A stretch of DNA of 44,231 nucleotides from Candidatus Vogelbacteria bacterium (lineage in GTDB: Bacteria; Patescibacteriota; Minisyncoccia; Phycocordibacterales; UBA12445), in assembly GCA_016201465.1 (NCBI GenBank), contig JACQCV010000032.1, forward strand, positions 1 to 44,231, in the 5' to 3' direction. Below are positions 14,321 through 30,529 of this stretch, in pieces. Numbering within the stretch: the stretch's first letter is position 1; each line of letters opens with the position of its first letter. Below the pieces are notes generated by a model, which was given only the letters and a program-made list of their open reading frames with translations, was not told the origin of the DNA and made no database searches. Made by a program: the position numbers and the translations under genes.

Positions 14321-14728
14321 TTATAGTCCCTTAGATACTCTTCTATTTGTCACAACGCGCATCCCCGATGCACCAGCAATCTTCATTAGGAATTCAAGCA
14401 TATCCAAAAATCCATCTGGCACAACGCTATCTAGTAAAATATTGCCACTCAAGTACCCAACTCTAGTACCATTGTAGATTTTGTCAGTACCAATATCTAG
14501 CGTTTGAATACGATCACACTCAACAAGCTCTCCATTCATAACGTCATCCACAAAATTAGCTGGCGGCAACCAATGGTGATCACCAACATAATGCAAAATC
14601 ATATCTGGCATCACCCATTTGTGGGCATTCTCAAAGGTCAAGTTAACATCACCGGAGGAAATTTTGGAGTACTTATTTCTACCCATATCAAATCCAGTGG
14701 CACAGAATGAACATAAATGAAAGCCCAT
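14321..14728 (-). CDS. Cys/His 'HYV-module' protein (uncharacterised family), paralogous module to 29668-30024
   Basis: Start reset to ATG 14728 (GGAGG SD 6 nt upstream). HLCSFC ... WVMPDMILHYVGDHHWLPPANFVDDV matches HHDCPYC ... YIWPEMLTHYVRVHKYQPPQEFVDFV in the other ORF. Confidence 0.6.
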   Translation of the reverse strand: MGFHLCSFCATGFDMGRNKYSKISSGDVNLTFENAHKWVMPDMILHYVGDHHWLPPANFVDDVMNGELVECDRIQTLDIGTDKIYNGTRVGYLSGNILLDSVVPDGFLDMLEFLMKIAGASGMRVVTNRRVSKGL

Positions 14729-14902
14729 TTCTAACCTCCAAAGTCGTAAACTTCGGCATTTCGGCATTGATAAACCACCGTAACAATACCACATATCACT
14801 CCATACTGTCCACTAATAGTATTTATTGTCTGCGAACAGAAGCCTGGGCCAATGCCTTCAGTTTCGGTCTTTTTTAAATTACTACCTCTATTAGGTAATT
14901 AA

Positions 14903-26404: not shown

Positions 26405-26477
26405 ATTGCACTATTATAGTCATTCAAAATAAAAAAACAACCTAGACAGACTTGCGTATTTTAGACCAAAAAATACA

Positions 26478-28289
26478 CTAATTTACTGAAGGATAATATT
26501 TTTCGCGAATTGCCCTAACTAAGACATCCTTATCTTTAGTAAATTTAAGTCCAAACTTTAAAGTACAGTAAGCATCCAGTGCTTGTTTTAAAGACTTAAT
26601 CTGAGCCACATCCAATTGACCGCCACTTTGATACCTGAACCTAACAAGGCTTTGAATGTCCCGCGGAAAATCCGCTAGATTACTCAAAAACTCTCGCCTA
26701 TAAAAATCGTGCGCGGTAAGAAATTTTGCGGATGATGGCCACTCGGGACTAGTGGTTCCGAAACCAGAATCAAAGTCAACAATTTTAATTCGGTCTTTCA
26801 CAAAGACAAGAAGGTCGTTTGATGGCAGCCCACTCAGTTGATTAAACTCTTCGTGCGGAATATTCAGTAGAAAACCGTTTAACTTTCTACCAGAACTATT
26901 TTCCAATTGATTAAGTTTAGTCTTCATTTTAACAATCTTATCGAATAGTTTGGCGGAAACAACCTGACCACTTGGCATTTTAACTTGAGCATCGCGATAT
27001 TTTTTGGCTCTGGGATCGTACTCCTTTGCTCTAGTTTTTTGAAGAGAAATAAAATCATCGGACACTGTATTTAAATCGACAAACGCTGGCCCGTTGAAAA
27101 CCGTATAGTCACCTAAAATCTGAAAAGCGTTATTATCTCCCTCTAGTAGATCAACCCCCTCAAATGCGTCCTGTCGTGGAGACGCAAGTTTAGGCCTCAG
27201 CCCAATTTTCTTGAGAGTATCATAGGCAGCGAGCTCAGACAAAACACTCGATCGCAATGAATCAATATAGCGCGGATAAGAATTTGATCGAGGATTCACA
27301 TCTGTCCCCATGAATTTCATCTCTTGTGCAATCAAATCTAATGTAAGCCAAAAACTATTCAAAAGATCTTTATCCTGGGAATTATTCAAGACAAAATTAG
27401 ATATTATAAACCTATCTTCCGTTAAATCTTCATACCCCGCTCTATTCAATAATCCACTCTCTGCAAGTTCCTGTTTTCTTAAAAATTGCGGAATTGCAAA
27501 AATTATCTCTACTCCATGAAGTTGATCCGGAAAAATTTCTAGGTAAAATTCCTTAACTTTCTCCACTGTCACTTCGTCTTTTTCAACAAGTGCATCGACC
27601 AAAAGCTGTTCTAATTTTGACGTGGCAGAGTTGTCTTCTGGATACTTGTCGTTTAACAGTTTATCAACTTCATCCTCCACCTCAAAAGAAAATCCGTATT
27701 TTTTCTCCCATACTGCAGATATTATTTCGGAAAATCTGTTGGCCTCCCAAGATCTAAGCCATTCGTTCCCCTCAAATCTGTCGACTATTTTTTTATCCTC
27801 CATCGATAATTTACCCAACTCATCAGTTAGAACTTTTACAACTTTCTGCGCTCGACTCACCTTGCTAACTAGAAATGTCTTGGGCTTCTCCTGCCTTACT
27901 TCTTTAAATATCTTATTCAAATCCATTTTTTCTGTAGAGTGAGACTTCTCGAGTGGTTCTTTTTCCCCAAAATTACCAGCCCGAAGCACTTTCTCCTCTG
28001 ACTTCTTTTGTGAATCTAAAAATCTTTTTTTTAAAATACTTTCCCGCTCTCCAAATGGGACACTAAATTTATTTTTCCACCAATCCTCAACCGCTTTTTG
28101 AACCGGAGTAAACATTGCCGGGTTAATTACTCCTCTCTCAAACCTATCTTTAATGTCGTCGCACAAATCTTCAGGAAACGCACTGATATCATTTCTGATT
28201 TCACGCTTAAGTAGCTCTTCCACGGTCGGGATCTTAGTGTTCGATAATCTCTCAGTAAATTTACCCATCTTTTTCATATTGTCAGCCAT
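26478..28289 (-). CDS. Large hypothetical protein (603 aa) with an internally repeated ~65-aa helical module
   Basis: Start reset to ATG 28289 because the longer ORF crosses a terminator. The N- and C-terminal modules align: REIRNDISAFPEDL..VQKAVEDWWKNKFSVPF versus REFLSNLADFPRDI..LKQALDAYCTLKFGLKF. Confidence 0.6.
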   Translation of the reverse strand: MADNMKKMGKFTERLSNTKIPTVEELLKREIRNDISAFPEDLCDDIKDRFERGVINPAMFTPVQKAVEDWWKNKFSVPFGERESILKKRFLDSQKKSEEKVLRAGNFGEKEPLEKSHSTEKMDLNKIFKEVRQEKPKTFLVSKVSRAQKVVKVLTDELGKLSMEDKKIVDRFEGNEWLRSWEANRFSEIISAVWEKKYGFSFEVEDEVDKLLNDKYPEDNSATSKLEQLLVDALVEKDEVTVEKVKEFYLEIFPDQLHGVEIIFAIPQFLRKQELAESGLLNRAGYEDLTEDRFIISNFVLNNSQDKDLLNSFWLTLDLIAQEMKFMGTDVNPRSNSYPRYIDSLRSSVLSELAAYDTLKKIGLRPKLASPRQDAFEGVDLLEGDNNAFQILGDYTVFNGPAFVDLNTVSDDFISLQKTRAKEYDPRAKKYRDAQVKMPSGQVVSAKLFDKIVKMKTKLNQLENSSGRKLNGFLLNIPHEEFNQLSGLPSNDLLVFVKDRIKIVDFDSGFGTTSPEWPSSAKFLTAHDFYRREFLSNLADFPRDIQSLVRFRYQSGGQLDVAQIKSLKQALDAYCTLKFGLKFTKDKDVLVRAIREKYYPSVN

Positions 28290-28360
28290 AATAATTATTT
28301 CTTGTTCGTTAATATTAACAAACTTTCTATCAGTTCCAAAATAAACAATCTTGCCAGTTT

Positions 28361-28387
28361 CAAAAAACTCGCCCCCGAGGGGCGAGT
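28361..28387 (-). terminator. Rho-independent terminator closing the 30024-28390 operon
   Basis: 9-bp GC-rich stem ACTCGCCCC/GGGGCGAGT with a 3-nt loop, followed on the minus strand by TTTTTT. It starts 3 nt after the stop at 28390. Confidence 0.8.
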
Positions 28388-28389
28388 TG

Positions 28390-28839
28390 TTATGCGATAT
28401 AAAACTTAAGTGCAACGGAATCGTCGTTCACCAACAGAATCTCTTCGACGGTCGGATGTTTAGTATAGCTTCCACCTAAACTCTTGAGCCACTCCACAAA
28501 TTCATTAGCCAACTCTTCCATGAGCGATTCACCCACCTGATCACGCTTGATATTAAAGCGATAATGCAGGGCCTCAGCAAAATCCGCAGTAAACTTAGAT
28601 TTACTAATCATCAAGGTACTTACCGGAACTGAGGCCTCGGCGCGTCTCCCCAAAGTGCCAAGGTATCTCCAGATGCGCAGATTAACTGATTCCTGCACGT
28701 GGGAAATAGAAATCGGACTGCCCCAAATAGGCATATGCGTCGGCGTGAGATCTAATCTCGCGGGCGAATCTAGACCACAATAATTTCCAAGTGCCTGAGC
28801 AAGTTCAATCGATGGTCCAAAAAAATTTCCCATGCTCAT
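28390..28839 (-). CDS. Hypothetical protein (149 aa)
   Basis: ORF overlapping the upstream stop by 4 nt (ATGA-type coupling). The FAEALHYRFNIKRD segment resembles the module of the 603-aa protein. Confidence 0.55.
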   Translation of the reverse strand: MSMGNFFGPSIELAQALGNYCGLDSPARLDLTPTHMPIWGSPISISHVQESVNLRIWRYLGTLGRRAEASVPVSTLMISKSKFTADFAEALHYRFNIKRDQVGESLMEELANEFVEWLKSLGGSYTKHPTVEEILLVNDDSVALKFYIA

Positions 28840-29105
28840 TTTCCATCCTCCAAATCTGTAACAACGGCACGCAAATCAAACAAATTTTTTATAGAACTTT
28901 TTTCAAAGTCTACAGAAACTTCAAGGTCAACAGTACAATTATCGTTATCGTGAGAGACAATCAGTACTTGAGACCCAAGATCAGATAAAAGCTCTGTCAT
29001 TCTGTTCGCCAAACCTAAAAGCGCATACCGATCACCATGGTCCCAATCATACCCGCGATCACCAGCACGCAACCTACTAAAATCAACCCGAATTCGCTTT
29101 CTCAT
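28836..29105 (-). CDS. Hypothetical protein (89 aa)
   Basis: Start reset to ATG 29105 (AAGGAGG 6 nt upstream). It overlaps the end of the M23-like gene by 23 nt. Confidence 0.5.
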   Translation of the reverse strand: MRKRIRVDFSRLRAGDRGYDWDHGDRYALLGLANRMTELLSDLGSQVLIVSHDNDNCTVDLEVSVDFEKSSIKNLFDLRAVVTDLEDGK

Positions 29106-29622
29106 TTCCAACCTCCTTCGAAGTAATAACCTTACCCACTTCAAAACTATAATCCACAAAACCTGGCTTCACTGTTTCGCCCTCGCTTTCATCTAGAACC
29201 GGTCTCACAAAAACCTCAAAGTCTAAGTGGGGTCCAACGCTATATCCAGTGTTACCACTATAGCCAATCAGTTGACCACATTCCACAGTCTGCCCAACAA
29301 CAACCAACGACCCACCACACTTCAAGTGTTCATAAGCGCTGTATTCCCTATTCGCATGTCGAATCACAATCCTATTGCCGTCATTCCAATATTTCCCGTC
29401 CGGTCCACCGACATCAGAATCCTGCTTAACATAAACTACCGTGCCACCCAAAGCCGCGACGACTTGGGATAGTTCTGGCACAAGAAAGTCGACCGCATAT
29501 TTCAGGTTTCCCTCATGTGAATTGAATGGAAGTTCACCATAATTATGACTCAACTGAAGGTCCTCAGCCAAAATCGGCAGTGCGTATATATTTGTGCTTT
29601 TGGCACTAGTCTCTTGATTCAT
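29083..29622 (-). CDS. Cytoplasmic M23 (LytM)-like peptidase-fold protein with variant metal motifs
   Basis: Start reset to ATG 29622 (AGGAGG 6 nt upstream). VAALGGTVVYV, IVIRHANREYSAYEHL, VGQTVECGQLIGYSGNTGYSVGPHLDFEV. No signal peptide. Confidence 0.7.
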   Translation of the reverse strand: MNQETSAKSTNIYALPILAEDLQLSHNYGELPFNSHEGNLKYAVDFLVPELSQVVAALGGTVVYVKQDSDVGGPDGKYWNDGNRIVIRHANREYSAYEHLKCGGSLVVVGQTVECGQLIGYSGNTGYSVGPHLDFEVFVRPVLDESEGETVKPGFVDYSFEVGKVITSKEVGNEKANSG

Positions 29623-29667
29623 CTTTTTCCTCCTGAGCATAAAAACATAAAACTCTTCAACCAAATT

Positions 29668-30024
29668 TTAGAAATCAAAATCTGGGAGCTTTATCATCCT
29701 GTCTTTTTTCTTCTTCTGTTTGGCGGAAGTCTGACTTGTTACGAAGTCAACAAATTCCTGTGGGGGCTGATATTTATGAACCCTTACATAGTGAGTCAAC
29801 ATCTCTGGCCAAATATATCCGCCGGCCATAATTTCAGAACTAGATTTTGCCCCGCCACAATAAGGACAGTCATGATGTCCAAAACTTGGCATTGTTTCAA
29901 TGTTCAGTTTCTTCAACTTATCCAAGAAATCTGCAGGTACGTTCCCAACCACAAAGTCACCGTCCAGATATCCTATAGCCTTTAATCTAACAACGGGATG
30001 TAAAGCCAAATCTTCTATAAACAC
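29668..30024 (-). CDS. Cys/His 'HYV-module' protein (uncharacterised family), first gene of operon
   Basis: GTG start with an AAAGGAGA SD. AIGYLDGDFVVGNVPADFLDKL ... HHDCPYC ... YIWPEMLTHYVRVHKYQPPQEFVDFV. Confidence 0.6.
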   Translation of the reverse strand: MFIEDLALHPVVRLKAIGYLDGDFVVGNVPADFLDKLKKLNIETMPSFGHHDCPYCGGAKSSSEIMAGGYIWPEMLTHYVRVHKYQPPQEFVDFVTSQTSAKQKKKKDRMIKLPDFDF

Positions 30025-30134
30025 CAGAAGTCTCCTTTCGATTAAAAATCAAAAAACGATCTTTCGTAAGACTAATAAAAAATATTGGTAATGTCCACCC
30101 TTTTTACTACTAAAAAGGTGGCACCTAACTCTGT

Positions 30135-30467
30135 TTATTTAGAGCTCTTCCAAGAATCTAGGGATTGCTGAGTAAAAAATTTCTTCTTAAGTTCATCTAT
30201 CTGATCCGGTAAAAGTCTTGCATCTTGGCATAGCTTACTAAACTCCTCTTGTAGTATTTTATTTTCAAATGAAAGAAGATCCCCGTTTTCAACTGCCTCC
30301 ATACCTCCCTTATATAAGTAGTTAATTTCCTGAGGTCCTATATTCCTCTCCAAAAGTCTTTCGGCAAAAACTAATCTAAACTTCTTACAAAATTCTTCCC
30401 ATTTCTTATCATCCATTCCCAACTTAAACAACTCAACCACTTCTGGATCAACCTTTGGGGGCAACAA
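30135..30467 (-). CDS. Hypothetical helical protein (110 aa)
   Basis: ORF followed by a hairpin (CCACCTTTTT..AAAAAGGGTGG, 30097-30123). No recognised family. Confidence 0.5.
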   Translation of the reverse strand: MLPPKVDPEVVELFKLGMDDKKWEEFCKKFRLVFAERLLERNIGPQEINYLYKGGMEAVENGDLLSFENKILQEEFSKLCQDARLLPDQIDELKKKFFTQQSLDSWKSSK

Positions 30468-30529
30468 ACTTTTTATCTGGAGAAGCCATACTTATTCATT
30501 ATATATTTAATAATAGCATATTTATTATA

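Follow-up and report, generated by a model that had tools for sequence, protein, structure and literature searches.

The stretch of DNA analyzed here, called the window below, comprises 44,231 nucleotides of a Candidatus Vogelbacteria genome (Patescibacteriota; contig JACQCV010000032.1), and our subject is a block of four consecutive minus-strand genes, A to D, in the interval between folD and secD. The original prediction regarded this block as one tight operon, in which a Cys/His protein, a cytoplasmic M23-like protein and two small proteins might form a conflict, toxin-immunity or regulatory system. With a probability of roughly two in three, our comparisons favor another reading, in which A to D are a lineage-specific mosaic gathered in a recombination-prone accessory slot, and not a conserved functional system. 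The genome assembly amounts to 756 kb in 44 contigs and is 74% complete. The block consists of the following elements.

29668-30024, minus strand: gene A, 118 aa, GTG start; DUF7919 protein, read as an orphan immunity-type gene
29083-29622, minus strand: gene B, 179 aa; stand-alone M23 metallopeptidase domain without signal peptide
28836-29105, minus strand: gene C, 89 aa; small genus-restricted protein, resident of the folD-secD slot
28390-28839, minus strand: gene D, 149 aa; ORFan, ATGA overlap with C
about 28360-28388, minus strand: downstream hairpin, intrinsic-terminator-like, closing the unit; 10-bp G+C-rich stem (about 28366-28388), folding energy (dG) -18 kcal/mol, then TTTTTT
about 30090-30125, minus strand: upstream hairpin after the neighboring gene F, parting F from A; dG -14.9 kcal/mol

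The anatomy of the block is as originally described. A check of the open reading frames (ORFs) of the window returned all four at the expected coordinates, with 45 nt between A and B and overlaps of 23 nt between B and C and of 4 nt between C and D; D is translationally coupled to C through the ATGA overlap. All four starts are preceded by a purine-rich Shine-Dalgarno (SD) sequence (AAAGGAGA, AGGAGGA, AAGGAGG, GGAGGA), and both hairpins, the downstream one with its T-run and a stem of 10 bp, were established by folding; a consensus terminator scan listed neither. Repetitive extragenic palindromic elements were ruled out as an explanation of the hairpins, as neither has a further copy in the genome. 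Codon usage, modeled on 229 long ORFs of the genome, gives A to D their highest score in the annotated frame, at 0.17-0.22 bits per codon versus 0.28-0.31 for secD and folD, and the annotated frame is also the best one for the adjacent genes E and F. All on one strand, with strong SDs, two overlapping junctions (23 nt and 4 nt) and a single terminator, A to D are, we infer, probably co-transcribed in this genome.

Elsewhere, these genes do not travel together. We sampled the neighborhoods of 22 loci of DUF7919, the family of A, which a genome-wide pattern scan had returned, and five B-family contexts. When the surroundings of the 22 DUF7919 loci were searched out to 6 kb by tblastn, with B, C, D, E and F as queries, there was no match, and no DUF7919, C or D gene lies near the B homologs in the five contexts. 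Of the closest two B homologs (63% identity), one, in another genus of the same family, is flanked by a LAGLIDADG-like gene and the gene of a short-chain dehydrogenase, and the other lies beside gatC; the three further contexts, on the JGI contig L060, a Parcubacteria contig and a Pacearchaeota contig, differ too. The sole close homolog of A, a DUF7919 gene of the same genus with 55% identity, is flanked by unrelated genes, with no M23 gene among them. C homologs in two relatives, G002 and G004, occur without A, B or D, and PADLOC gave no match for A to F at E <= 1. With 22 DUF7919 loci, five B contexts, C found alone and D an ORFan, the families do not co-occur in any other place examined, and the proposal of a single coupled system made up of A to D was not borne out. 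That a new four-component system does not survive this comparison spares follow-up effort.

The surroundings of the block provide the complementary evidence. Synteny of the gene pairs glyA-folD and secD-secF extends to five relatives, four from the same genus and one from the same family; what lies between the two pairs there is unrelated in content and 0.1 to 3.6 kb long. The slot and its further genes in the window, followed by the slots of the five relatives, are these:

26405-30529, unstranded: variable slot between folD and secD, 4.1 kb; genes F, A, B, C, D and E
26478-28289, minus strand: gene E, 603 aa
30135-30467, minus strand: gene F, 110 aa
G001 and G003: slot of about 110-160 bp, empty
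G002: slot of 1.5 kb; antitoxin-like ORF, HicA toxin (48 bits), C homolog (44% identity) and small Lys-tailed ORF
G004: slot of 0.5 kb; 51-aa ORF and C homolog
G005 (related genus): slot of 3.6 kb (L020:6901-9381); Y1/IS200-like transposase and cytidine-deaminase-like 271-aa protein

E and F gave no family match and have no counterpart in the slot of the five relatives. C is the only recurrent resident, always next to secD or nearly so, and A and B on one side of it and D and E on the other are, judged by the sequences compared, additions specific to this genome. In its conserved flanks, in contents that range from empty to 4.1 kb within one genus, and in its cargo of toxin-antitoxin and transposase genes, the slot resembles known accessory-gene hot spots. 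In contrast to these, no integrase and no att-like or flanking direct repeats were found at the slot, its hairpins are unique and its composition is undistinguished. A compositional island was accordingly rejected: the G+C content of the slot (0.34-0.47) is like that of the flanks. The HicA toxin gene of G002 and the antitoxin-like ORF upstream of it are found at L016:5363-5816. A folD-secD accessory slot that is reproducible at the genus level offers a handle on cargo gain and loss in tiny genomes.

Gene A belongs to Pfam family DUF7919 (PF25535), which it matches with 60.5 bits at a cut-off of 27 over profile positions 16-125 of 126. Aligned with canonical members, A carries every conserved block of the family, namely GWL...VP..F, CxxC and HY[VI]..H.Y.PP.EF. 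The CxxC...HxxxxH arrangement first singled out as an "HYV module" is the conserved DUF7919 core; in A, this Cys/His module is formed by CPYC (29857-29868) and HYVRVH (29776-29793). Apart from the close homolog, 631 remote relatives of A were found among 1.84 billion representatives. Both A and its same-genus homolog end, after a Lys-rich stretch, in an identical KLPDFDF tail (29668-29691, minus strand, in A), which may be a short linear motif; the remote representatives P0125-P0127 align up to the last residues of A. DUF7919 occurs in two of 61 genomes, i.e., this genome and 60 relatives, and the window itself holds a second copy:

14321-14794, minus strand: gene A2, second DUF7919 gene of the window; PF25535 53.3 bits on residues 21-86

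A2 is circularly permuted relative to A, so that the CxxC...HYV..H..PP block comes first and GYL...VP..F, N-terminal in A, comes last. This permuted form is also kept in Buchananbacteria, in Collierbacteria as tandem pairs, in Parcubacteria and in one Nanoarchaeota archaeon (L027:5950-6387, L034:1484-2321, L037:2476-2850, L038:5872-6625 and L040:3800-4162). In the literature searched, neither DUF7919 nor PF25535 is mentioned.

Three DUF7919 loci point to a function of the family. In Nocardioides (L036:49-6327), the DUF7919 gene begins 4 bp past an Rhs gene with a C-terminal Pfam Stv domain (PF21527); in Streptomyces (L035:830-6108), it begins 17 bp past the gene of a 1613-aa Rhs protein; and in Pseudomonas fluorescens (L041:62-6507), it overlaps the end of a DUF637/hemagglutinin-repeat gene (filamentous hemagglutinin, CdiA-like). 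The three toxin C-termini are mutually homologous (E 6e-13 and 3e-27) with the common ending ...LQPNMG.CHWAAC, and the toxin-linked DUF7919 proteins score 127-145 bits with PF25535. Two more DUF7919 loci are Rhs arrays, L025 with a Tox-HNH domain and L042. One C-terminal domain on differing delivery scaffolds with the same small gene behind it is the classical signature of a polymorphic toxin-immunity pair. Because the homologous C-termini sit on three unrelated scaffolds and a DUF7919 gene comes next each time, this arrangement suggests that DUF7919 provides immunity against the Stv-type toxin domains at the C-termini of Rhs/CdiA-like polymorphic toxins. The preprint in which Stv was defined makes the case for a toxin domain that has a His-Cys dyad, and names no immunity protein for it (10.1101/2022.08.23.504947).

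In the genome studied here, the toxin side of such a pair was not found. PF21527 had no match in this genome or in the 60 relatives, in a search that recovered the domain in the Nocardioides and Streptomyces genomes as positive control, and BLAST with the Stv C-termini gave no match in this genome. Directly upstream of A there is no cognate toxin gene; its neighbor is the 110-aa F, followed by the hairpin. Because canonical DUF7919 genes follow Stv toxins and PF21527 is absent from this genome and its 60 relatives, we read A as an orphan immunity-type gene. The original idea of a conflict or toxin-immunity role is retained in that A belongs to a family whose canonical members hold the immunity position behind three unrelated scaffolds, as polymorphic toxin immunity genes do; it falls where it extends to a four-gene system. 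A and A2 resemble orphan immunity genes of the acquired interbacterial defense clusters of Bacteroidales in that neither has a toxin. Unlike those clusters and polymorphic toxin loci, however, this locus contains neither a toxin nor a recombinase, nor an immunity-gene array.

On this reading, A and its permuted paralog A2 would bind and neutralize an incoming Stv-type toxin from neighbors or from actinobacterial hosts. Saccharibacteria live on Actinomycetota, and these hosts have recently been found to attack them with effectors secreted by the Esx route, so that a protective role of A appears plausible (PMC13622651). If the assignment of DUF7919 as Stv immunity protein were true, it would account for the occurrence of toxin-less copies in epibionts with hosts that fight back (PMC13622651). 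One may go further and speculate that DUF7919 is the unnamed Stv immunity protein, that Saccharibacteria and those members of the candidate phyla radiation (CPR) and DPANN with the permuted form keep orphan copies against Stv-type toxins of hosts or neighbors, and that the co-transcribed, signal-less M23 protein with its H/D/D site is part of the same epibiont attack-and-protection kit; as a whole, we consider this proposal rather unlikely.

Several points weigh against reading the block as a mosaic with A as an orphan immunity gene. The tight overlaps and the single terminator look like those of a functional operon, and a young, lineage-specific partnership can be compatible with the lack of conservation. 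Direct pairing of Stv with DUF7919 is seen in just three of the 22 loci, and polymorphic-toxin loci of any kind make up five of the 22. A is shorter than the toxin-linked DUF7919 immunity proteins and remote from them, with only 26-33% identity, and it lacks an internal segment of 15-25 residues that they have. The proteins most closely related to it are likewise from CPR and lack a toxin neighbor, and DUF7919 in CPR may therefore have another role. Finally, as the genome is 74% complete, the portion not recovered could contain a toxin gene.

Turning to gene B, its assignment to the M23 fold without a signal peptide was borne out. B matches Peptidase_M23 (PF01551) with 65.2 bits at a cut-off of 28.7 over residues 42-139. 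The best solved relative of the B family is zoocin A (5kvp, profile E 2e-19); the family profile also matches ShyA and LytM structures, and the M23 structures 5kvp, 2b44 and 4qp5 span E 2e-19 to 4e-14. NCBIfam matches of B are murein endopeptidases below threshold (MepM 3e-14). The family counts 211 homologs in total, and among the 120 of these that were listed the median length is 154 aa. Its sources include Parcubacteria, Pacearchaeota, Aenigmatarchaeota and Nanoarchaeota, i.e., it is distributed patchily across CPR bacteria and DPANN archaea. Neither B nor the family of about 150 aa has a hydrophobic N-terminal segment. The catalytic domain starts at about residue 9, and the N-terminus of B belongs to the fold itself: position 6 of the family profile already aligns with residue 14 in the catalytic domain of mature zoocin A, which leaves no space for a signal peptide in B. 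No secretion, trafficking, target-recognition or wall-binding domain was found in B. Within its genome, B matches just two paralogs, both ordinary large M23 genes; genes of this ordinary kind, encoding 370-450 aa, are present in 61 of 61 genomes, and the short M23 form in two of 61 (this genome and G006). Supported, too, was the original claim that this is no cell-wall hydrolase operon, at least none of the classical kind.

The metal site of B shows one substitution, at the residues located as follows.

H36 29515-29517; D45 29488-29490; H99 29326-29328; H132 29227-29229; D134 29221-29223; all minus strand: ligand and catalytic residues of B, D134 replacing the usual His

These residues lie in the motifs SHEGNLKYAVDF (H36...D45), YEH (H99) and PHLDFE (H132, D134), and H36, D45, H99 and H132 are invariant in the short M23 family. 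H36 and D45, the candidates for the first two zinc ligands (HxxxD in PF01551), align to the His and Asp of HVGVD in zoocin A with a 5-residue insertion (H-x8-D). This spacing had been taken for a peculiarity of B, which it is not: the insertion is a loop common to the short M23 family, and its length varies among members. The H-L-D in place of HxH, the motif of the catalytic His and the third zinc ligand, in contrast, was confirmed as B's own. PHLDFE is found in B only among the 120 listed homologs, the other 119 having PHLHFE (113), PHLHLE or PHVHFE (2), or being fragments or not matching the pattern (4). The codon of D134 is GAC, and two separate sequencing runs of the same population yielded Logan assemblies that contain the exact DNA, including this codon, at 100% identity; an assembly slip is therefore unlikely.

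Asp is able to bind zinc. As far as sequence comparison can tell, B is probably a lysostaphin/zoocin-type zinc endopeptidase in which one ligand has undergone a conservative change, and with its last ligand His exchanged for Asp it would be either a working enzyme at an H/D/D site or a weakened one. B shares the fold family of zoocin A, LytM and lysostaphin, and keeps the first His and the Asp, the His of YEH and the first His of HxH. It differs from them in that it has neither a signal peptide nor a recognition or wall-binding domain, holds about five extra residues in HxxxD and has Asp in place of the final His. By-products of interest from this work are the DUF7919-Stv pairing, the permuted DUF7919 form in CPR/DPANN, and a natural His-to-Asp swap that affects the third zinc ligand and leaves the M23 domain otherwise intact, in an uncharacterized signal-less CPR/DPANN family.

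Two further observations concern the short M23 family. Seven members of 211-216 aa (P0028, P0040, P0052, P0064, P0073, P0080 and P0090) have a C-terminal extension with two hydrophobic helices, and Lys residues precede the first helix in this subset, which weakly hints that the extended proteins may be tail-anchored in the membrane with the domain on the cytoplasmic side. On the Pacearchaeota contig (L063:2632-6016), the short M23 gene stands in a run of SRP54, M23, alpha/beta-hydrolase, VKOR and RIO-type kinase genes with 1-4-nt junctions, an odd place for a murein peptidase, in an archaeon without murein. A prophage reading of B was rejected, as PHROGs gave only generic M23 matches (tape-measure and endolysin families) and there is no other phage gene nearby.

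An alternative to the mosaic is that B is a peptidoglycan-cleaving effector directed against the walls of hosts or competitors, that C or D or both, coupled to it, provide immunity or act as chaperones, and that A is an unrelated orphan immunity gene. The bacteriocin-like zoocin A as best solved relative would fit such a role, and an effector followed by small coupled genes is an order known from toxin-immunity layouts; a HicA toxin gene also occupies the same slot of a relative. Self-protection from zoocin A and lysostaphin, however, is by cross-bridge modification of the FemABX type and not by binding proteins. Moreover, B-family genes have no conserved small downstream partner elsewhere, C occurs in G002 and G004 with no adjoining M23 gene, and B lacks a secretion or trafficking domain. 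C and D lack an export signal as well, while the target of an M23 enzyme lies outside the membrane. In favor of the effector reading, M23 genes of CPR and DPANN have been read as wall-lytic weapons in the literature, the short M23 family not being among those studied (PMC9530719, PMC8561730, PMC12352652). Taken together, we regard the effector explanation as distinctly unlikely.

Very improbable, in our view, is the original proposal in its full form, that is, a single dedicated system of the conflict, toxin-immunity or regulatory type, with the Cys/His protein, the M23 variant and both small proteins as cooperating parts. In its favor are the common strand, the strong SDs, the overlaps of 23 nt and 4 nt, the one terminator and the isolating upstream hairpin, and the identical arrangement is found in the two run assemblies, although at 100% identity these stem from the same population. 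Against it stands that no pairwise linkage recurs in the 22 DUF7919 loci, the five short-M23 contexts, the same-genus DUF7919 locus or the C homologs, that D has no homolog anywhere searched, and that PADLOC gave no match. Least probable of all is that H134D makes B a catalytically dead pseudo-enzyme, a binding or regulatory module like EnvC and NlpD, for although the last zinc-ligand His is replaced in B alone among the 120 listed homologs and weak NCBIfam matches to NlpD, EnvC and ActS exist (E 1e-4 to 3e-3), the other catalytic and ligand positions (H36, D45, H99, H132) are kept, Asp is a competent zinc ligand, and B matches active enzymes much better (MepM 3e-14, zoocin A 2e-19). The degenerate LytM regulators EnvC, NlpD and SpoIIQ likewise have an M23 fold with an altered set of metal ligands; they are exported and have lost several ligands, and EnvC and NlpD act outside the membrane on amidases, whereas B shows a single conservative change and no export signal.

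For the mosaic reading, C and D would be the slot's resident small protein in this genus and a young ORFan, respectively. D had no homolog in a word-indexed search of 5.8 billion proteins or in the 60 relatives, and is present in one of the 61 genomes; it matched no Pfam, NCBIfam, PADLOC or PHROG family. Its single-sequence AlphaFold2 (AF2) model was unusable, with a predicted local distance difference test (pLDDT) score of 36.8. A BLASTP comparison of D with E returned a patch of 9 identities in 12 positions (TK.PTVEE.L) at E 0.04 in a single comparison, too little for homology, and C, D, E and F have no paralogs in the genome. C belongs to no known family and is present in three of the 61 genomes including this one, its homologs being confined to G002 and G004, where they occupy the corresponding slot immediately upstream of secD. 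A Foldseek search with the AF2 model of C gave generic matches only (best E-value 0.027) and no specific fold. The model itself, built on a 3-sequence alignment, reached a pLDDT of 74.5 and a predicted template modeling score of 0.67, and its beta-alpha-beta-beta-alpha-beta order makes a ferredoxin-like fold of C plausible.

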